The notes under the pieces: generated by a model
The model's input: only the letters and a program-made list of their open reading frames with translations
What the model was told of the DNA's origin: nothing
Databases searched by the model: none
Program-made: the position numbers and the translations under genes
Shown here: positions 384 through 13,085 of the stretch, in pieces
How positions within the stretch are numbered: position 1 is the stretch's first letter
Layout of the letters: each line of letters starts with the position of its first letter
Origin: Escherichia coli
GTDB lineage: Bacteria > Pseudomonadota > Gammaproteobacteria > Enterobacterales > Enterobacteriaceae
Assembly: GCF_024502345.1 (NCBI RefSeq)
Contig: NZ_JALDNN010000001.1
Length of the DNA: 64,000 nucleotides
Direction: 5' to 3' (one strand)

Positions 384-1565
384 TTAGCGTTCCACGATCG
401 CGATGCGGCGGTTATAGATATTCATCAGCAGCGAGATAGTCAGGCTGATAATCAGATAGACCGACATGGTCATGGCTATCGTCTCGATGGCTTGCCCCGT
501 CTGGTTCAGCACGGTGCCAGCAAACAGCGAAACCATATCGGGATAGCCAATAGCGGCGGCAAGAGAGGAGTTTTTGACGATGTTGAGATACTGGCTGGTT
601 AACGGTGGAATAATCACCCGCAGTGCCTGGGGAATAATGACCTGGCGTAGCGTAACCGGGTTGGGTAATCCCAGTGACCGAGCAGCTTCATGTTGACCAT
701 AAGGCACTGCCTGGATCCCAGCGCGGATAATCTCGGCGATAAATGCAGAGGTATAAACCGAAAGTGCCAGCGTTAAGGCTGCCAGTTCAGGAATTAAAAC
801 CATCCCGCCGCGGAAGTTAAAGCCTTGTAGGGCTGGGACATCCCAGTGTAGTGCTGCGCCAAAAAGCCATTGCGCCAGTAAAGGCAAACCAATGATCAAC
901 ACTGCGGCGATGGGCCAGGTGCGGCGCAGTTGTCCGGTCTTTATCTGGTATGTTTTATTAAAGCGGAATAGCCCAACAGAAAGGACTATAGCCATAACAA
1001 CAGCCAGGATAAACGCAATAAATCCGTCTCCCAGCTGCGGTGACGGAATATAAAGCCCACGATTGCTCAAAAAGGCGAGAGCAAACGCGCTCACAGCCTG
1101 GCGTGGTCCGGGCAAATTGCGCAACACGGCAAAGTACCAGAAGAAGATTTGCAGCAGCGGGGGAATATTACGGAAGATCTCAATATAAATTGTGGAAAGC
1201 TTTCGTAGCAGCCAGTTATCCGAAAGTCTCGCCAGACCGATAAAGAAGCCCAAAACAGAAGCGAACACAATACACAATGCAGAAACCAGTAGCGTATTGA
1301 GTAAGCCGACAATAAAAACGCGTCCGTAGGTGTCGCCCTGCTGGTAATCGATCAAATGCTGGACAATACCGAAACCAGCGCCGCGATCCAGAAAGGCAAA
1401 ACCTGAAGTAATGCCACGATTGCTCAGATTCGTTACAGTGTTGTGAAATAACCAACCAACAATGCCGACAACAGCAACAACGGCAAGGATCTGGAATAAC
1501 CAGGCGCGAACCGTAGGGTTGGCAAAAGAGAGTGAGCCTTTAACGGTTGAGCGGCGATGAGACAT
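384..1565 (-). CDS. yhdX: Amino-acid ABC transporter permease
   Basis: 399-aa ORF in track; multi-pass membrane protein; likely true start at internal MSHRRSTVKG; conserved position after yhdW. Confidence 0.85.
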   Translation of the reverse strand: MSHRRSTVKGSLSFANPTVRAWLFQILAVVAVVGIVGWLFHNTVTNLSNRGITSGFAFLDRGAGFGIVQHLIDYQQGDTYGRVFIVGLLNTLLVSALCIVFASVLGFFIGLARLSDNWLLRKLSTIYIEIFRNIPPLLQIFFWYFAVLRNLPGPRQAVSAFALAFLSNRGLYIPSPQLGDGFIAFILAVVMAIVLSVGLFRFNKTYQIKTGQLRRTWPIAAVLIIGLPLLAQWLFGAALHWDVPALQGFNFRGGMVLIPELAALTLALSVYTSAFIAEIIRAGIQAVPYGQHEAARSLGLPNPVTLRQVIIPQALRVIIPPLTSQYLNIVKNSSLAAAIGYPDMVSLFAGTVLNQTGQAIETIAMTMSVYLIISLTISLLMNIYNRRIAIVER

Positions 1566-1632
1566 AGAAACCTCGGAAAGCATAACGCTGAAGAGAGCGC
1601 CGCCGTAGCGACGCCCGTTACCTCACACCGAC

Positions 1633-2658
1633 TTAACGCACGGGCGGCGCGTACTGAATACCGCCGTTATTCCAGAGATTATTTTGCCCACGTTTAATTT
1701 TCAGCGGGCTTTCTGAACCTACGTTACGCTCGAAAATTTCCGAGTAGTTACCCACCTGTTTGATGATGTTATAGGCCCATTTATTATCCAGCTTCAGATC
1801 CTTGCCGTAATCGCCTTCTTTACCCAGCAGATGTGCCATATCAGGCGTTGCTGGATTAGCCGCTTTTTCATCGACGTTCTGAGAATTGATGCCCATCTCT
1901 TCAGCATTCAGCATGGCGAAAAGCGTCCAGCGTACAATCGAGAACCATTCATCATCGCCACGACGAACTACCGGCCCAAGCGGTTCTTTAGAGATAACCT
2001 CCGGTAAGACAATCCATTCAGCTGGGTTGCTTAATTTGATGCGCAGGGCATACAGTTGCGACTGATCCGAGGCCAGCGTATCGCAGCGACCAGATTCCAG
2101 TGCCTTCGCTGATTCGTCAGAGCGATCGAAAGTCACCGGTGTGTACTTCATATTGTTTGCCTTGAAATAGTCGGCAACGTTGAGTTCGGTATCAGTACCC
2201 GCCTGAATACAGACGGTAGCGCCATCCAGTTCTTTCGCGCTTTTTAGCCCCGCTTTATCGTGCGTCAGGAAGCCAATGCCGTCGTAATAAGTGACGCCAG
2301 TAAATGCCATTCCCATCCCGGCGTCGCGAGATGAAGTCCAGGTCGTATTACGGGAGAGCAAATCCACTTCCCCTGACTGTAAAGCCGTGAAGCGTTCTTT
2401 TGCTGTGAGTGGGGTATATTTCACTTTCGTGTCGTCACCAAATACAGCAGCGGCAACACCACGACAAACATCAACATCAATACCTGAAAACTTACCGTCT
2501 GCATCGGCATAAGAGAACCCAGGTAATCCATCACTGATCCCGCATTGCACAAAACCTTTTTTCTGAACGGCATCAAGCGTCGCGCCAGCATGCGCCTGAT
2601 TTGCAACGGCAAGCAGCACGCTGGCGGCAGCCAGTGTGGCTATCATCATCTTTTTCAT
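1633..2658 (-). CDS. yhdW: Periplasmic amino-acid binding protein of ABC transporter
   Basis: 341-aa ORF with signal peptide MKKMMIATLAAASVLLAVANQAHA; conserved position. Confidence 0.9.
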   Translation of the reverse strand: MKKMMIATLAAASVLLAVANQAHAGATLDAVQKKGFVQCGISDGLPGFSYADADGKFSGIDVDVCRGVAAAVFGDDTKVKYTPLTAKERFTALQSGEVDLLSRNTTWTSSRDAGMGMAFTGVTYYDGIGFLTHDKAGLKSAKELDGATVCIQAGTDTELNVADYFKANNMKYTPVTFDRSDESAKALESGRCDTLASDQSQLYALRIKLSNPAEWIVLPEVISKEPLGPVVRRGDDEWFSIVRWTLFAMLNAEEMGINSQNVDEKAANPATPDMAHLLGKEGDYGKDLKLDNKWAYNIIKQVGNYSEIFERNVGSESPLKIKRGQNNLWNNGGIQYAPPVR

Positions 2659-3088
2659 AATGCTTCCTGTGAGGCGAAAATTATCGTTATAGGACGTTTG
2701 GGAAACGTCTTTTACCTGTCTGTGGCCATCCTCTTATAAGCAAAAGTAGTGCCAGCTTTTGCGCCCGATTTCGCGTCGCAATAAGCTGAGTGTAGACAGG
2801 AAATAATAAAAACAGCGCCCCGCAATGGTGCGAAAATGAAACATGCGCCACATTTTGGCGCAAAATATTTACGCGTGTTTTACTAAGCAGAATAATGATT
2901 GTTAGCGTGAGTATATTTCTGGTGGGAAGTATGAAAGTTAAATTGATGCGTTATTTCGAAAGCAGCGAAATAACGCGATATAACATGCTAAATCAGCAGA
3001 GAATTAGCCAGCAGAATATAGCAATATTTTATCTTATGTAAAGATACTGTATCGTTAAACAGAGCGCGAAACTCCGCGCCCTGTTCAG

Positions 3089-3310
3089 TTATTTCGACAG
3101 AGCGATGATCCCCATCGTCAGGCCAGCAACAGCTGCTGCCCCGCCAGCAATAGCCCCAGCCGTTTCCCAGTTATCCTGAGTTGTGCCTTTCATACAGGTA
3201 TTGGTGTGAACCAGACGACCCTGATCGTCATAAACCGGAACGCAGGGCGAATCATGAGCACAGCCCGCCAGCAATGCGGTGAGCAATGCCACAGGAATTA
3301 ATCTTTTCAT
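3089..3310 (-). CDS. yhdV: Small lipoprotein
   Basis: 73-aa ORF with lipoprotein signal MKRLIPVALLTALLAGC; conserved position downstream of acrF. Confidence 0.8.
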   Translation of the reverse strand: MKRLIPVALLTALLAGCAHDSPCVPVYDDQGRLVHTNTCMKGTTQDNWETAGAIAGGAAAVAGLTMGIIALSK

Positions 3311-3523
3311 GGTGTTACCTCAGTAATAAACGCTAACGCTTAATAAGTTAACTCTCTTATTAACGAGCTGAATGCCATTTTATCACCGGAGGTTATAAAT
3401 CTTGCGGAATGAATAATGACAAATTATGTGAATTGTAAAAATAGTGAAGGGAGCGGGAACTATAGAAAGTTTTTAAAGAGTGAGAAGAAGAATATCTTAT
3501 TAATTTTTATGGGTTTCACTGAA

Positions 3524-3553
3524 AATAATAAAGGCGCCCGAAAGCGCCTTTAT
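3524..3553 (-). terminator. Rho-independent terminator downstream of acrF
   Basis: GC hairpin aaaggcgcccgaaagcgccttt flanked by A/T runs, 10 bp beyond acrF stop. Confidence 0.6.
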
Positions 3554-3562
3554 GTTTCTGAT

Positions 3563-6500
3563 TTATCCTTTAAAGCAACGGCGGATCACCACAAAGAACA
3601 CCGGTACGAAGAAGATTGCCAGCAACGTTGCAGAGACCATTCCTCCCATTACCCCGATACCCACAGCGTTCTGCGCGCCACTGCCGGCACCGTTACTGAT
3701 AGCCAGCGGTAATACGCCGAGAATAAAGGCGAGAGAGGTCATCAGGATAGGACGCAGACGCATACGTACTGCCATTAGTGTCGCTTCAACAACACCTTTA
3801 CCCTCTTTCTCCATGAGATCTTTAGCGAACTCAACAATCAAAATAGCGTTTTTGGCCGACAAGCCAATTGTCGTTAGCAAGCCCACCATAAAGTAGACGT
3901 CATTTTTTTGATTAAAGAGTGTCGCCGCCAGCAGCACGCCGACAATCCCTAACGGCACGACCAACATAACCGAGACAGGAATTGACCAGCTTTCATAGAG
4001 TGCAGCAAGGCACAGGAAAACAACCACAAAGGAAATTGCTACCAGAGCGGGAGCCTGGTTTCCCGATAAGCGTTCCTGATACGACATACCCGTCCAGTCA
4101 TAACCAATGCCCGCAGGTAATTTTGACGCAAGGTTTTCCATCAACGCCATGGCATCGCCGGAACTGGTTCCTGGCGCGGCTTCCCCCTGAATCTCCATTG
4201 ACGGCAGACCGTTGTAGCGTTCCAGTCGCGGAGAGCCATACACCCAATGTGAAGTGGTAAAGGCAGAGAATGGCACCATTTCGCCGTTGGCGCTGCGGAC
4301 ATAAAGTTTATCGACATCTTCTGGCAGCATACGGAATTTGGCATCCGCCTGAACATACACCTTTTTCACGCGACCACGGTCGATGAAGTCGTTAACGTAA
4401 GTCCCACCCAGCGCCGTTGAAATGGTCTGATTGATGTCAGAAAGTGAAACACCTAATGCCTGCGCCTTTTCCTGGTCAACTTCCAGTTTAAACTGCGCGG
4501 TGTCTTCCAGGCCATTAGGACGCACGCTGACTAAGCTGGCAGGATGTTGCGCCGCCATACCAAGCAACTGGTTACGGGCCTGGGTTAGGGCATCGTGACC
4601 CAGCCCAGCCTGATCAATTAACTCAAAGTCGAAACCCGTTGCCGTGCCCAGTTCAACAATGGCTGGCATATTGAATGGAATGACAAAACCGTCGCGGATC
4701 TTGCCCAACTCCATTTTGGCACGATGGATTACCGCTTCCGCACTGTTTTCGTCACCACTACGCTCTTCCCACGGTTTCAGACTGACGAAGGCCATACCGG
4801 CGTTTTGTGCCTGGCCGCTGAAGCTAAAGCCGTTAACCGTAAAGACACTTTCAACGTTTGCTTTCTCGTTCTTCAGATAGTAATCCGTCACTTGATCCAA
4901 CACTTTTTGCGTCCGCTCTTGCGTCGCGCCAGCGGGTAACTGAATCATGGTCAGAAAGACACCCTGATCCTCTTCAGGTAAGAAGGAAGACGGAAGACGT
5001 AAAAACAACACCACCATTCCTGCAACAATCAGCGCATAGATCAGTAAATATCGTCCTGTGGAACCGAGGATTTTGCCGACGCTGTTGGTGTAGTGGTTAA
5101 CGCTATGATCGAAGGTGGTATTAAACCAGCCGAAGAAACCGCCCTTATTTTCGTGATGCTCAGCAGAGACGGGTTTAAGCAGCGTTGCACATAACGCAGG
5201 GGTAAGAATCAATGCCACCAGAACAGAAAGCGCCATTGCCGAAACGATGGTGATAGAGAACTGGCGATAAATTGCCCCAGTAGAACCGCCGAAGAATGCC
5301 ATCGGAATAAATACCGCTGACAGCACCATCGCGATACCCACCAGTGCGCCCTGAATTTGCGACATTGATTTTTCCGTCGCTTCTTTTGGCGGGAGCTTAT
5401 CCTCCATCATCACGCGCTCGACGTTCTCCACCACCACTATCGCATCATCGACGAGCAGCCCGATGGCAAGCACCATCCCGAACATCGTTAGTGTGTTGAT
5501 GGAGTAACCAAAAGCGGCGAGGATGGCAAACGTCCCTAACAACACCACGGGTACCGCAATGGTGGGGATCAGCGTTGCTCGCATATTCTGCAAGAACAGA
5601 TACATCACCAGGAACACCAGCATAATAGCTTCGAACAGTGTTTTTACCACTTCGTGAATAGAAAGCTGGACGAATGGCGTGGTGTCATAAGGGTAGAGAA
5701 CCTTCATTCCCTGCGGGAAGAATGGCTGTAATTCCGCCAGTTTTGCCTTAATGGCTTTCGCGGTATCGAGAGCATTCGCGCCGGTTGCCAGCTTAATCCC
5801 CAGGCCCGCCGCCGGTTTTCCGTTGATACGAGCGATAACGTTATAGTTTTCACCGCCAAGTTCAACCCGTGCGACATCTTTCAGGCGTACCACCGAGCCG
5901 TCACTGTTTACGCGCAGGGTCACTTTGCCGAATTCTTCCGGATTTTTTAACCGCGTTTGAGCAATAATCGAGGCATTCAACTGTTGCCCTGGTAACGCTG
6001 GCGTTCCGCCCAACTGTCCGGCAGCGATCTGATCGTTCTGTACCTTCAACTGGTTAATCACATCAACCGGTGTCAGTTTATATTTGTTTAGCAGATCGGC
6101 GTCCAGCCAGATACGCATCGCATACTGTGCGCCGAAAAGCTGTACGTCACCGACGCCATTCAGACGGCTAAGCGTATCTTTAACGTTAGAGGCCACATAG
6201 TCCGAGATATCGTCCTGTGTGGTGTCTGGGTTATCAGAGACAAAGCCCGCCACCATCAAATAGCTGCTACTGGACTTTTCAACACTGATCCCCTGCTGCT
6301 GAACCTCCTGCGGCAGCAACGGCGTGGCGAGCTGGAGTTTGTTCTGCACCTGCACTTGCGCGATATCAGGATCGGTCCCGGACTGGAAGGTAAGGGTAAT
6401 TGTCACGCTACCGGCGGAATCGCTGGTGGAGGACATATACATCAGGTTATCGATACCATTCATATTCTGTTCGATAACCTGCGTCACCGTATCCTGCACG

Positions 6501-6667
6501 GTCTGCGCATCAGCACCTGGATAGTTTGCCGAAACAGAAACCGCAGGCGGTGCAATGGTTGGATACTGAGCGACGGGCAATTGTAGGATCGCCAGTGCGC
6601 CCGCCATCATCAGAATAATGGCCAGCACCCATGCAAATATCGGTCGTCGAATAAAAAAGTTTGCCAT
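3563..6667 (-). CDS. acrF: RND multidrug efflux pump inner-membrane transporter AcrF
   Basis: 1034-aa [39 protein letters not shown]... typical AcrB/AcrF family; follows acrE. Confidence 0.95.
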
Positions 6668-6678
6668 GTCAGATTACC

Positions 6679-7836
6679 TTACTTCGATGCAGTATCTGCG
6701 GGGGTATCGGTAGTGGCTTTAACCTGCTCTCCCGGACGCGCTTTTTGCAGGCCGCTGACAATGACTTGATCGCCAGATTTCAGACCTTCGCTAATCAACC
6801 ATTTATCGCCAATCGCCTGACTGGCAACGACAGGGCGCGCTTCCACCTGACTTTTATCGTTAACAATCAGCACGGTTGCATCACCACGCGGTGTGCGGCT
6901 AACGCCTTGTTGCGGGATAAGAATGGCGTCAGGTTGGACGCCTTCATCAATCCGTGCACGCACAAACATACCCGGCAAAAGCGTATGTTGCGGGTTAGGG
7001 AAGACAGCACGTAGGGTTATGGAGCCGGTGCTTTCATCAACGGTCACATCAGAGAATTGCAGCGTACCTTTCAGGGGATAGGTTTGACCGTTTTCCATGA
7101 CCAACTCTACGTTGCTGGTGGCGTTTTCCTTATGCAAATTTCCTTGCTCTACGGATTGCTTCAGCCTCATAAAATCGTTGCTGGATTGGGTCACATCAAC
7201 GTAGATAGGATCGAGCTGCTGGACAGTCGCCAGTTCAGTCGTTTGCCCATTAGTGACAAGAGCGCCTTCGGTCACGGTCGATTTGCCGATACGTCCGCTA
7301 ATTGGCGCAGTCACTTTGGTATAAGCGAGATTGATGCGAGCGCTTTCGACTGTGGCTTTTGCGGCAATCACGGCGGCATCGGCCTGGCGAGCATCAGCAA
7401 TGGCCTGGTCGTACTCCTGCTGGCTGATGTATTTCGTACCCACGAGCGGAACGTAACGTTTTACCGTCAAATGCGCGATGGCGGCGGCGGCTTCACTTTT
7501 CGCCAGTTCGCCTTTCGCGCTGTCATAATTTGCCTGATAGGTCGCGGGATCGATCTGGTACAGGGACTGGCCTGCTTGTACATCGCTGCCTTCAGTGAAA
7601 TTACGATTCAGTACGATCCCGCTAACCTGTGGGCGAACTTCGGCTATACGGTAAGCATTGGTGCGGCCTGGTAATTCAGTCTTAACTTCTAACGGGGCCG
7701 TTTTCACAATATGAACGGTAACCTGCGGTTCACCGACGTGAGCTTTCTCTTCTCCCTTATCGTTACAACCGGCGATTAAAGCCGCGGAGATCAGAATAAA
7801 GGAGGGCAGGAGGAAAAACCTGGCATGTTTCGTCAT
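6679..7836 (-). CDS. acrE: RND efflux pump periplasmic adaptor (membrane fusion protein) AcrE
   Basis: 385-aa ORF with lipoprotein signal MTKHARFFLLPSFILISAALIAGC; 11 bp upstream of acrF. Confidence 0.95.
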   Translation of the reverse strand: MTKHARFFLLPSFILISAALIAGCNDKGEEKAHVGEPQVTVHIVKTAPLEVKTELPGRTNAYRIAEVRPQVSGIVLNRNFTEGSDVQAGQSLYQIDPATYQANYDSAKGELAKSEAAAAIAHLTVKRYVPLVGTKYISQQEYDQAIADARQADAAVIAAKATVESARINLAYTKVTAPISGRIGKSTVTEGALVTNGQTTELATVQQLDPIYVDVTQSSNDFMRLKQSVEQGNLHKENATSNVELVMENGQTYPLKGTLQFSDVTVDESTGSITLRAVFPNPQHTLLPGMFVRARIDEGVQPDAILIPQQGVSRTPRGDATVLIVNDKSQVEARPVVASQAIGDKWLISEGLKSGDQVIVSGLQKARPGEQVKATTDTPADTASK

Positions 7837-8258
7837 TACTATTCCTCAAAAAACCAAAAGCGCGTTATTTACCCAGAAAGGCAACGCGTTAACTCGCAGA
7901 AAGAAAAATACAGTTCGCTATCCTACAAATTATCATTCGTCGATGTAAGGAATAGTTATGAATACTGGCGTCTCAAGGCACATAAACACAAAAAAAGATT
8001 AATATTCTACTGTTTTATTTTGACGCGGGTTGAAAGAGGCAGAATTAAAACCTCGTAAATTGAAATATATATTCATGTGGCGAATGTATTTTAGGTAAAT
8101 AATATATATTATTTATTTGACGATTTATAGCAACTCAATGTTACCCTCTCGTATAAATACACATTAGATGATAGATTAACCTTCGCTATTTTCTCACCCT
8201 GTGTCGAATATATTTATTTCCTGAATAATTAATCATGGCAAAAAGAACCAAAGCCGAA

Positions 8259-8267
8259 GCTCTGAAG
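8259..8267. repeat. Left 9-bp target-site duplication GCTCTGAAG of the IS903-group insertion
   Basis: Identical 9-mer immediately flanks both IS ends (8259-8267 and 9325-9333). Confidence 0.85.
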
Positions 8268-9324
8268 GGCTTTGTTGAATAAATCGAACTTTTGCTGAGT
8301 TGAAGGATCAGATCACGTATCTTCCCGACAACGCAGACCGTTCCGTGGCAAAGCAAAAGTTCAAAATCACCAACTGGCCCACCTACAATAAAGCCCTCAT
8401 CAACCGTGGCTCCATAACTTTCTGGCTGGATGATGAAGCTATTCAGGCCTGGTATGAGTCAGCAACACCTTCTTCACGAGGCAGACCTCAGCGCTATTCT
8501 GACCTTGCCATCACGACTGTGCTGGTCATTAAACGCGTATTCAGGCTGACCCTGCGCGCTGCGCAGGGCTTTATTGATTCCATTTTTTCTCTGATGAACG
8601 TTCCGCTACGCTGCCCGGATTACAGCTGTGTCAGCAGGCGGGCAAAGTCGGTTAATGTCAGTTTCAAAACGCCCACCCGGGGTGAAATCGCACACCTGGT
8701 AATTGATTCCACCGGGCTGAAGGTCTTCGGTGAAGGCGAGTGGAAAGTCAAAAAGCATGGCCAGGAACGCCGCCGTATCTGGCGTAAGCTGCATCTCGCC
8801 GTTGACAGTAAAACACATGAAATCATCTGCGCTGACCTGTCGCTGAACAACGTTACGGACTCAGAGGCCTTCCCCGGGTTAATCCGGCAAACCCACCGGA
8901 AAATCAGGTCAGCCGCCGCCGATGGCGCTTACGATACCCGGCTATGTCACGATGAACTGCGGCGTAAGAAAATCAGCGCGCTTATCCCTCCCCGAAAAGG
9001 TGCGGGTTACTGGCCCGGTGAATATGCAGACCGTAACCGTGCAGTGGCTAATCAGCGAATGACCGGGAGTAATGCGCGGTGGAAATGGACAACAGATTAC
9101 AACCGTCGCTCGATAGCGGAAACGGCGATGTACCGGGTAAAACAGCTGTTCGGGGGTTCACTGACACTGCGTGACTACGATGGTCAGGTTGCAGAGGCTA
9201 TGGCCCTGGTACGAGCGCTGAACAAAATGACGAAAGCAGGTATGCCTGAAAGCGTGCGTATTGCCTGAAAACACAACCCGCTACGGGGGAGACTTACCCG
9301 AAATCTGATTTATTCAACAAAGCC
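8268..9324 (+). mobile_element. IS903-group (IS5 family) insertion sequence, 1057 bp
   Basis: 18-bp terminal inverted repeats GGCTTTGTTGAATAAATC (8268-8285) and reverse complement (9307-9324); single transposase ORF; 9-bp direct target duplication; length and repeat sizes match IS903/IS102-type elements. Confidence 0.85.
8300..9268 (+). CDS. IS903-group DDE transposase
   Basis: 322-aa ORF (TTG start in track) MKDQITYLPDNADRSVAKQKFKITNWPTYNKALINRGSITFWLDDEAIQAWY...; recognised as IS5-family/IS903-group transposase. Confidence 0.85.
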   Translation: MKDQITYLPDNADRSVAKQKFKITNWPTYNKALINRGSITFWLDDEAIQAWYESATPSSRGRPQRYSDLAITTVLVIKRVFRLTLRAAQGFIDSIFSLMNVPLRCPDYSCVSRRAKSVNVSFKTPTRGEIAHLVIDSTGLKVFGEGEWKVKKHGQERRRIWRKLHLAVDSKTHEIICADLSLNNVTDSEAFPGLIRQTHRKIRSAAADGAYDTRLCHDELRRKKISALIPPRKGAGYWPGEYADRNRAVANQRMTGSNARWKWTTDYNRRSIAETAMYRVKQLFGGSLTLRDYDGQVAEAMALVRALNKMTKAGMPESVRIA

Positions 9325-9333
9325 GCTCTGAAG
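9325..9333. repeat. Right 9-bp target-site duplication GCTCTGAAG
   Basis: Direct repeat of 8259-8267 flanking the IS. Confidence 0.85.
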
Positions 9334-9965
9334 ACCCGGCAAGAACTGATTGAAACTGCCATCGCCCAGTTTGCGCAACATGGCGTAAGCAAGACGACGC
9401 TCAACGACATTGCCGATGCCGCTAACGTTACGCGTGGCGCTATCTACTGGCACTTCGAAAACAAGACTCAACTGTTTAATGAGATGTGGTTGCAACAGCC
9501 TTCATTGCGGGAGTTAATCCAGGAACACTTGACGGCTGGATTAGAGCATGACCCGTTTCAACAATTGCGTGAAAAATTGATTGTCGGCTTGCAATATATT
9601 GCCAAAATTCCCCGCCAGCAGGCGTTGCTGAAAATCTTATATCACAAATGTGAATTTAATGATGAGATGCTGGCCGAGGGAGTGATACGCGAAAAGATGG
9701 GCTTTAATCCGCAGACTCTCCGCGAAGTATTGCAGGCGTGTCAGCAACAAGGTTGTGTAGCAAATAACCTCGATTTAGATGTTGTGATGATTATTATTGA
9801 TGGTGCCTTCAGCGGAATTGTTCAAAACTGGTTAATGAATATGGCGGGTTATGATCTTTATAAACAAACCCCCGCTCTGGTCGATAACGTATTAAGAATG
9901 TTCATGCCAGATGAAAACATAACGAAATTAATTCATCAAACGAATGAATTAAGTGTCATGTAAAT

Positions 9966-10145
9966 TCACATTCTGTCCTGAAAATTCAGTTCGTCACAGT
10001 TAACCAGTTTTAGTGGATTAACTGAGTTCATATTACGGCATTTGTCTGTTTCTGTTGTCAGCAGTTCAATCCACTGCATCAGTAAAGTATCAAACAGAAA
10101 AACGAAGACAGCGAAAACGACGAGCCACCAATACTTGCGAATCAT
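9966..10145 (-). CDS. yhdU: Small membrane protein YhdU
   Basis: ORF containing MIRKYWWLVVFAVFVFLFDTLLMQWIELL...; conserved position between acrS and yhdJ. Confidence 0.75.
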   Translation of the reverse strand: MIRKYWWLVVFAVFVFLFDTLLMQWIELLTTETDKCRNMNSVNPLKLVNCDELNFQDRM

Positions 10146-11198: not shown

Positions 11199-11215
11199 TT
11201 AGTTCATGCCGTATT
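11199..11215. repeat. Left copy of 17-bp direct repeat TTAGTTCATGCCGTATT (duplicate of fis 3' terminus; att-like)
   Basis: Exact 17/17 identity with 13069-13085, which is the true 3' end of fis including its stop codon. Confidence 0.9.
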
Positions 11216-11382
11216 GTAAAATACAGAGTCATTATACGTAATTTATTATCACTCTAGATAATTTGTATTCATCATAAATAATTGATGCGGAAAGAGATAT
11301 TTATTTTTTATTGGCTCGCATTGTATCATCAGTTATCAGTTACTCCCTGCATACAGTTGTCAAAAAGGTTGTCATTAACTCT

Positions 11383-11481
11383 ATGGCCGAAAATAAACTC
11401 TCAGATGTTCAATTGCGTGCGTTAACCCGCAAAGTCATCGAAAAACCTTTTGATGTTGCTGACGGTGGCCAAGTTGGGTGA
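11383..11481 (+). pseudogene. Putative integrase N-terminal (arm-binding domain) remnant, 32 codons then stop
   Basis: MAENKLSDVQLRALTRKVIEKPFDVADGGQVG* resembles the KLTD..R..KP....DGGG N-terminal motif of tyrosine integrases; followed by a hairpin plus T7 run at about 11570-11600. Confidence 0.35.
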
Positions 11482-11610
11482 AAACCTGCTATGCAGCTAC
11501 CGCATAAGGGTAGTGGATTCCGCTGAAATCTTGCCGTTCATCCGATCATAACATCACAACAGTTGTTGCCCATTACCCTGGCGAATGCCGGGGCTTTTTT
11601 TATTTTCAAA

Positions 11611-11923
11611 GTGACGCCTAGGTGTCATTAATTTATAAGGTGTCATGGTAGGTGTCATTGTTCTCAAGCCATAACCCGCAAGGGTTGCGACATTACTAAT
11701 GACACCTATGACACCTATGACAGCATTTTTAAAGAAAATAACGACCACTGTAATAATGTAACAGTGGTCGTTATACTTTATAGAAATGGGTGTCATGGTG
11801 TCACAGGTGTCATTCATTACAGTATCTTGTTTGTATTTTTCTTTAATAATCAGCGTGTTTCCCGCTATGACACCTAATGACACCTTTCCAACATAACGCC
11901 GTCATGGTGACATTAGGTGTCAT
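11611..11923. repeat. Iteron-like array: at least 11 copies of the 9-mer AGGTGTCAT / ATGACACCT in both orientations
   Basis: Forward copies at 11620, 11638, 11650, 11789, 11797 (variant), 11805, 11915; reverse copies at 11699, 11708, 11867, 11877; arranged as two similar modules (three forward then two reverse) about 169 bp apart. Confidence 0.8.
11739..11773. repeat. Perfect hairpin/palindrome with 13-bp arms (TAACGACCACTGT / ACAGTGGTCGTTA) and 9-nt AT-rich loop, central to the 9-mer array
   Basis: Read directly from sequence. Confidence 0.8.
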
Positions 11924-12274
11924 CGCCATCTGCTGCCAAAAAAGTCAAGGTACTTCCGAGGGGGGTACAGCCTGCGGGGGCATTGGTCCCGCGTAATTCG
12001 CGTTGTGCGTGCCCCTACAAAACTCACTTTATGATTACGTCAAGTAAATCAATCATTTATGTGAATCCTATCAAAGCACTGGCACCATACGTGCGCGATT
12101 GCAAAATAAAGCGAACACGTTTTACACACGCTGAATTGTAAAGATGTGTAAATATCGATTACGCCGGATTATGCCGGGTTATTTGCAAGTATTCAGGGTT
12201 ATAAGTTACTGATTTTACATTAAAAAGCTCACATTGTGGCTATTGTGTTCGGTCTGGTTACTGTATATCTTTAA

Positions 12275-12991
12275 GTCATTCCAGGCGATTTAGCTGGCCT
12301 GGCGCTGGCAGGTTATCAGATTTACCGCCATTGGGCTGGTGTGAAGGCTTTCTTTGGCGGAGTGGGTGAAGGCATCAAATCCGGGCTGGAACCGCTTAGC
12401 GACGCTCTGAGCCGCCTTTATGAACGCATGGGGCCGCTGAAACCTGTCATTGATGGTGTGGGTGCTGCGGTTAAGACGGTTTTCAACTGGTTCACGTCAT
12501 TGACCGAGCCGGTCAAGTACAGTGGCGAGGAACTGGATAAGGCCGGTAAAATGGGGATGACGTTCGGTAAGACCCTGGCGGCTGGCATCGAGCTTGTGAC
12601 CGCACCGATCACGTTCCTGATTGATAAGATTCTGTGGGTGTCTGACAACATCGGCAACCTGACCAACAAGGCACTGGAGTTTAAAAACGCCGTGTCTGAT
12701 GTTGCTGGTGGTGCGTGGCAGAAAACCAAAGATTTCTTTACCGCACCATTCCGCGACGATGTACAGCAGCCAGCAGCAACCACTGCCTCTGGTGCTGCCC
12801 TGCCGTCACCTGCACTGGCCAACCGCTCTGGTGGCACTACGGTGCATAGCAACGACCAGTACCACATCAGCGTGAAGGCAGAACCTGGTATGAATGAAGA
12901 TGCATTAGCCCGGAAGGTGATACAGCAACTACGACAGCAACAAGCAGTAAGGCAGCGAAGCATGATGATAGATGGCGCGCAAACACCATAA
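12275..12991 (+). pseudogene. 5'-truncated phage tail tape-measure-like protein, C-terminal fragment
   Basis: Open frame from 12275 (stop at 12272 upstream) encodes ...LAGLALAGYQIYRHWAGVKAFFGGVGEGIKSGLEPLSDALSRLYERMGPLKPVIDGVGAAVKTVFNWF...VHSNDQYHISVKAEPGMNEDALARKVIQQLRQQQ; Gly/Ala-rich segments and C-terminal tail typical of tape-measure proteins; no plausible start or RBS for a full gene. Confidence 0.4.
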
Positions 12992-13068
12992 GGGTTGTCA
13001 GTACGGTTGCAACAAAAAGTAAAGGGACTGAAATAGCCCCTTTAATTTCATGCCGTTACAGCTTGACT

Positions 13069-13085
13069 TTAGTTCATGCCGTATT
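13069..13085. repeat. Right copy of 17-bp direct repeat TTAGTTCATGCCGTATT (native fis 3' end)
   Basis: Encodes the last codons ...YGMN* of fis on the minus strand. Confidence 0.9.

Follow-up and report, generated by a model that had tools for sequence, protein, structure and literature searches.

An IS903B insertion interrupts acrS (envR) beside the acrEF operon of Escherichia coli

Activation of the acrEF efflux operon by insertion sequences was reportedly described by Kobayashi (2001), Jellen-Ritter and Kern (2001) and Olliver (2005), with IS1, IS2, IS5 and IS10 represented across a series of laboratory-selected alleles that arose under drug or solvent selection. The operon itself is silent, being repressed by H-NS, and IS elements upstream of it raise its expression (PMC4462101). 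Strains that are null for acrB evolve IS insertions upstream of acrE (PMC7771234; PMC9783932). The documented activating positions, relative to the acrE start codon, are -138 and -187 for IS1, -86 and -90 for IS2, and -94 and -163 for IS5; all were found in acrB-null backgrounds, and promoters borne by the elements were held responsible (PMC9783932). The supplementary Table S2 of one of these studies also includes insertions labelled "acrS", namely an IS5 at 3,407,126 and an IS2 at 3,407,133 in the reference coordinates of that paper (PMC7771234), and we suspect that both sit in the spacer near acrE. The preliminary description of the present locus cites IS insertions in the acrS-acrE region as a known way of activating acrEF, in agreement with the published record on insertions upstream of acrE (PMC4462101, PMC9783932, PMC7771234).

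The gene that faces this operon encodes EnvR (AcrS), a TetR-family protein, which is transcribed divergently from acrEF and predominantly represses acrAB rather than acrEF. EnvR has a higher affinity than AcrR for the acrAB promoter, and a role as a switch, co-expressed with acrEF, has been proposed for it (PMC9780535). The locus described here, in which acrS is interrupted by an IS903B element, lies within a 64-kb stretch of E. coli DNA, referred to as the window; all coordinates below are positions in that window.

Structure of the insertion and of the interrupted gene

The genes are arranged as acrF-acrE / acrS-yhdU-yhdJ, with acrS divergent from acrEF. On the minus strand, acrF (3563-6667; RND permease, 1034 aa) and acrE (6679-7836; periplasmic adaptor, 385 aa) are both intact, as judged from their open reading frames together with three collinear annotated loci in the case of acrF and, in the other, a collinear annotated acrE whose boundary falls exactly at position 7837. 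The control region between the divergent genes (7837-8234) is the native one: its 398 bp are uninterrupted and align without gaps to genomes that carry the empty site. Downstream of acrS lies its neighbour yhdU (DUF2556), which is intact on the minus strand at 9966-10145; in the annotated collinear E. coli locus yhdU begins 3 nt past the acrS stop.

A complete IS903B of 1057 bp occupies positions 8268-9324 on the plus strand. Its limits are given by the 18-bp inverted repeats, GGCTTTGTTGAATAAATC, which match each other without mismatch; the left repeat (IRL, plus strand, 8268-8285) forms the acrE-proximal end of the element and the right repeat (IRR, 9307-9324) was recovered as an 18-mer match on the minus strand. 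These are the only two matches to the repeat in the whole 64-kb window, against a shuffle expectation of 0.06. Both ends adjoin a 9-bp target duplication, GCTCTGAAG, the left copy (8259-8267) abutting IRL and the right copy (9325-9333) abutting IRR, and no other copies occur in the window. The transposase frame is open as far as 9268 from either a TTG at 8300 (322 aa) or a GTG at 8345 (307 aa). The 307-aa product (8345-9268, plus strand) aligns with all 289 positions of the NCBIfam profile for IS5-family transposases, NF033579 (profile positions 1-289), with a score of 357.6 bits (cut-off, 140 bits). It points away from acrE, as first described, and towards the 3' part of acrS.

The preliminary description had called the insertion intact on account of its 18-bp repeats, 9-bp duplication and complete transposase ORF, and each of these features was recovered by the motif, ORF and profile scans. 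Its assignment to the IS903 group was right and can be refined: the element matches annotated IS903B copies from many different E. coli chromosomes and plasmids at 100% identity over the full 1057 bp. The name is the one that PGAP gives to these copies ("IS5-like element IS903B family transposase"). Sequence of the IS903 type is present in 1,993 of the 5,426 complete E. coli genomes, at up to 47 places per genome. Since the copy in acrS is base for base the same as many others, it transposed recently and presumably remains active.

IS903B entered acrS after codon 11 and before codon 12. The 5' fragment (8235-8267, plus strand) starts at the ATG at 8235 and comprises codons 1-11, MAKRTKAEALK; the 3' fragment (9334-9963, plus strand) holds codons 12-220 and the stop. 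When positions 8268-9333, i.e., the element and one copy of the duplication, are deleted, a 663-nt ORF is restored that encodes a normal AcrS of 220 aa. This reconstructed protein matches the AcrS equivalog NF007430 over its full length at 431.8 bits (cut-off, 274 bits). The reported split of AcrS after MAKRTKAEALK is thereby borne out by the sequence and by the reconstruction, and the naming of the gene product as a TetR-family acrAB repressor encoded divergently from acrEF is upheld by the profile match, the synteny and the published work (PMC9780535).

As it stands, the acrS frame runs into the element and ends at a TAA at 8280-8282, which yields a peptide of 15 aa. In the 3' part the first canonical in-frame start is the ATG at 9484 (Met62); a product of 159 aa beginning there would cover only positions 62-220 of the NF007430 profile and would lack the N-terminal helix-turn-helix. 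Given a 15-aa product and a restart devoid of the DNA-binding motif, the gene as read from its frames is certainly a null allele. An N-terminal fusion that retains the helix-turn-helix was also considered; the frame leading from the element into acrS extends for about 29 codons without a stop and includes no ATG, GTG or TTG and just one CTG, which makes such a product improbable. A second, intact acrS had been named as an observation that would overturn the first account. No further acrS-like sequence was found elsewhere within the 64-kb window, which is the extent over which the point can be assessed; among the complete genomes acrS is single-copy in nearly all (median of one place per genome, maximum of two).

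The insertion adjoins a tract of unusual composition. No 398-bp stretch of the window exceeds the acrE-acrS spacer, with its 31.9% GC, in AT content, and only 0.08% of all stretches of that length are as AT-rich. The 200 bp to the left of IS903B have 30.5% GC, and the element lies 33 bp beyond the spacer edge. Along the locus, the GC content is about 30% in the spacer, 53% in the inserted 1 kb, and 35-37% in the 3' end of acrS and yhdU. The insertion had been placed 400 bp upstream of acrEF; more precisely, the ATG of acrE is separated by 398 bp from that of acrS and by 432 bp from the end of IS903B.

The locus in other E. coli genomes

An insertion at codons 11/12 of acrS was present in none of the 5,426 complete E. 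coli genomes, and a 39-nt sequence spanning the junction, CCAAAGCCGAAGCTCTGAAGGGCTTTGTTGAATAAATCG, had no exact match among the GTDB representatives or the JGI metagenome contigs. The two complete-genome records that cover the query carry IS903-group elements at other positions, in the spacer in the case of ZY22049 and within yhdJ in that of TW10690. Over 24.6 kb of flanking core genes, the best identity to any complete genome was 99.3%, so that the lineage has no clone-mate among the complete genomes. The reconstructed empty site (1061 bp) aligned in one ungapped piece, at 99.7% identity, to strain FDAARGOS_943, and about 5,200 other genomes also align. This site is interrupted in at most 27 of 5,242 genomes; judging from these alignments, acrS disruptions are rare and include no recurrent single-site allele. 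At least 80% of the broader 1798-bp interval is kept in 5,222 of the 5,426 genomes.

Comparators were sampled from the complete genomes by means of the empty-site query, and individual matches were then inspected. In ZY22049, an IS903-group element at -207 of acrE is oriented like the one in the window and flanked by a 9-bp duplication, AGAGGCAGA, and acrS is intact; the two elements differ at one base in their first ~190 bp, after which their sequences diverge. Genome 510016 carries an IS1A at -109 of acrE, together with a deletion of acrS and yhdU. Its position fits the laboratory activating class, whereas that of the window allele does not. In Z1323HEC0393 an IS3-family element is found within acrS itself, after 207 nt. 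MSB1_1A has an IS903B within acrE, and NDM6 has an IS903B at the same acrE site, accompanied by a deletion that extends through acrS into yhdU. The elements in TW10690 and 2017-19-1CC are located in yhdJ. Finally, in EcPF16 the 5' end of acrE, the spacer, acrS and yhdU are all unmatched, and the yhdJ end of the query alone aligns.

The natural IS alleles of the acrE-acrS locus thus vary both in position and in element, and none shares the junction of the window. Such varied events, several of which destroy acrE, would fit better with tolerated insertions in a dispensable, silenced region than with consistent selection for AcrEF. Elements of the IS903 type were seen in the 1798-bp interval of at least three genomes, against about 1.7 expected at uniform density, a figure derived from 4,712 chromosomal places in the 5,426 genomes; the count comes from incomplete sampling and includes genomes that are probably related by clonal descent. 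This rough and incompletely sampled estimate reveals no clear excess of IS903-type insertions at the locus. The allele is new in the collections searched, and the event is of a well-known and ordinary kind.

Origin and expected effect of the allele

We consider it likely, with a probability of roughly 70%, that IS903B hopped recently into the 5' end of acrS as part of neutral traffic in an H-NS-silenced and dispensable region, and that the pump has not been switched on. An active IS903B copy would have transposed into the gene by simple cut-and-paste, generating the 9-bp target duplication. The landing site may have been set by the capture of IS903 in AT-rich DNA bound by H-NS. DNA of this type preferentially captures IS903 (PMC11335895); when Cooper et al. 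re-analysed the IS903 insertions of Swingle et al., H-NS-bound DNA accounted for 19 of 32 in wild-type E. coli, as compared with 11 of 33 in an hns mutant and 10 of 33 random positions (PMC11335895). The present element adjoins AT-rich DNA of the H-NS-bound type, at a distance of 33 bp from a tract of 31.9% GC. We infer the occupancy of the acrE-acrS locus by H-NS from its AT content and from published work, part of it in Salmonella. The bias of IS903 towards such DNA, combined with the AT-rich spacer, would provide a non-adaptive reason for the presence of IS903B at acrS; as the rough count does not establish a hotspot, the idea of capture rests on the literature.

The insertion presumably persisted since acrS is normally silent and dispensable, and the phenotype to be expected at baseline is for the same reason nil or slight. 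The acrEF operon would stay silenced by H-NS, and acrAB would stay under the control of AcrR. The single change to be predicted is conditional: if the locus were derepressed, AcrS could no longer shut down acrAB, and the proposed switch between AcrAB and AcrEF would then be broken.

An adaptive origin, in which the insertion was selected since the removal of AcrS relieves the repression of acrAB and raises intrinsic efflux, appears unlikely. The strength of the repressor lends it some plausibility: besides its tighter binding to the acrAB promoter, overexpression of EnvR has a strong phenotype, in which AcrB is abolished, and the deletion of envR from a clinical isolate of Salmonella that expressed this gene highly raised acrA 2.1-fold (PMC9780535). 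In ordinary backgrounds, however, envR is silenced by H-NS, to which the little or no effect of an envR deletion in Salmonella SL1344 has been ascribed (PMC9780535). Moreover, envR gave no efflux signal in a genome-wide transposon screen of E. coli; under acriflavine, insertions in envR showed no selection signal by TraDIS, as opposed to 12.1 log-fold for acrR (PMC10197877). The rarity of acrS disruptions (at most 27 of 5,242 genomes) and the lack of a recurrent single-site allele among them likewise argue against it. The published losses of envR thus have little or no phenotype, and a small baseline effect is accordingly expected for this allele. The genes acrB, acrR and marR are located outside the window; the insertion could still have been selected if the background were AcrB-defective.

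Activation of acrEF is less probable still. Here, the element would break an H-NS nucleoprotein domain extending over the spacer and acrS, or an unrecognised outward promoter would reside in its left end. The proposal has precedents, in that laboratory insertions upstream of acrE switch on an operon that is silenced by H-NS, and ZY22049 carries, from an independent event, an IS903-group element at -207 that is oriented likewise. In addition, 1 kb of 53% GC now parts the AT-rich spacer from the AT-rich 3' end of acrS and yhdU, and such a block, placed at the border of the silenced domain, could make silencing less effective. The position of the insertion speaks against it: the end of the element is at -432, outside the documented range of -86 to -187, and all 398 bp of the native spacer are retained. 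Consensus scans at 9/12 and at the more permissive 8/12 found no outward or hybrid promoter in the outward 200 bp of the acrE-proximal IS end or at the junction, although a weak or atypical promoter may escape scans of this type; the sites that they did return were confined to native DNA left of the insertion and occurred at background frequency. Nor does IS903B figure as a promoter donor in the papers examined, where it appears as a gene-inactivating element or as an entry in lists of IS types. Other natural IS903B insertions at the locus inactivate acrE, which argues against consistent selection for AcrEF. The suggestion of the preliminary description that the insertion joins the acrEF-activating class consequently finds no support in its distance, in the intact spacer or in the promoter predictions.

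A combined effect can also be envisaged, again with a low probability. The loss of AcrS and the arrival of 1 kb of DNA with normal GC content at the border of the H-NS domain might together uncouple the proposed AcrAB/AcrEF switch, such that acrEF is partly derepressed, or both pumps are expressed together once silencing is lifted. If so, this would be a natural efflux-up allele that acts from 432 bp without an IS promoter.

Lastly, misplacement of an IS copy in acrS by the assembler can be dismissed, even for a multicopy element found at up to 47 places per genome and even though repeats are a classic source of misjoins, since the 9-bp duplication is perfect and the removal of the element and one copy restores the wild-type gene to the base, in one piece with the empty sites of other genomes.

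On the preferred reading of a recent and neutral insertion, the allele is an example of a natural acrS null and one more case of IS traffic around acrEF. It would be relevant to the prediction of resistance only if acrEF or acrAB proved to be derepressed by an insertion at such a distance upstream. Disruptions of acrS would then deserve a flag in genotype-to-phenotype pipelines; the present evidence does not warrant one, because the published tests of envR loss of function are essentially negative.

Comparison with known systems

What the window allele shares with the laboratory activating alleles is an IS in the vicinity of acrS and acrE, with an intact acrEF operon downstream of it. The laboratory alleles were selected with drugs or solvents in acrB-null strains; their elements are 86-187 bp away from the acrE start codon and provide IS-borne or hybrid promoters. 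The window allele, in contrast, lies at -432, inside acrS, involves another IS family and has no predicted outward promoter. Of the four papers that mention both IS903 and acrS, none has a title or abstract on an insertion of this kind.

As a member of the IS903 group of the IS5 family, the element conforms to IS903B in its length of 1057 bp, its 18-bp repeats, its 9-bp duplication and its single DDE transposase of 307 aa. It is no different from other IS903B copies, and the insertion site alone is new among the collections searched.

A further parallel comes from Klebsiella, where IS903B and ISKpn26 knock out small negative regulators such as mgrB, the loss of which leads to colistin resistance. 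In both instances a small negative regulator is inactivated by the simple insertion of an IS5-family element. The two differ in outcome: loss of mgrB confers a strong and selectable phenotype, whereas published tests of acrS loss show a slight phenotype or none.

Lineage of the source strain, and natural loss or rearrangement of acrS in complete E. coli genomes

Across the core genes dusB through aaeB, which flank the locus (window 13400-38000), the best match among 5,426 complete E. coli genomes was only 99.3% identical; the source lineage is without a close relative in that collection. In the same set, 184 of the 5,426 genomes gave no megablast match at all to a 1061-bp query composed of the acrE-acrS spacer and acrS rebuilt without the insertion sequence, and 204 of 5,426 kept less than 80% of the 1798-bp empty-site stretch that extends from the 5' end of acrE to the 3' end of yhdJ. 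Among complete E. coli genomes, acrS is thus lost or rearranged naturally at a frequency that is not very low.

An integrative-element remnant between yhdJ and fis

The yhdJ-fis interval of the window carries a ∼1.85-kb remnant of an integrative element (11199-13085). A 17-bp sequence, TTAGTTCATGCCGTATT, is repeated directly and without mismatch on its two sides, at 11199-11215 and at 13069-13085, where it forms the 3' end of fis. Strain JML285 has an intact element of ∼9.5 kb at the same site, with genes for an integrase, an HTH protein, a VapE-type primase and a phage tail tape-measure protein, together with small ORFs; this element looks like a phage satellite. Only three segments of the JML285-type element survive in the window. 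One is the attL side, in which the integrase gene is cut short after ∼90 nt; another is a piece of 827 bp from the middle of the element; and the third consists of the final ∼700 bp of the tape-measure gene. This implies two deletions within the element.

Insertion sequences around acrE in other strains

In both MSB1_1A and NDM6, IS903B is located within acrE at an identical position, ∼200 nt past the start of the gene (equivalent to about 7633-7645 in the window). NDM6 also lacks all of the sequence from the IS903B insertion to yhdU (window equivalent 7646-10079), which looks like an adjacent deletion mediated by IS903B that took away the 5' end of acrE together with the spacer and acrS.

Strain ZY22049 carries an IS903-group element at -207 relative to the acrE start (positions 3208-4263 of its locus, L001), with the target duplication AGAGGCAGA. 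This element differs from the IS903B of the window by a single base in the first ∼190 bp but diverges markedly beyond, as would be expected if it were an isoform of the IS903 group with a mosaic or recombinant origin.

In strain 510016, two copies of IS1A in opposite orientation flank acrEF, one on each side (positions 943-6862 of its locus, L004). The first copy lies just past the end of acrF. The second is 109 bp upstream of acrE, and on that side acrS and yhdU have been lost. The IS1A-acrEF-IS1A layout resembles a composite transposon. The 510016 allele is a natural counterpart of the laboratory IS1 alleles that activate acrEF.
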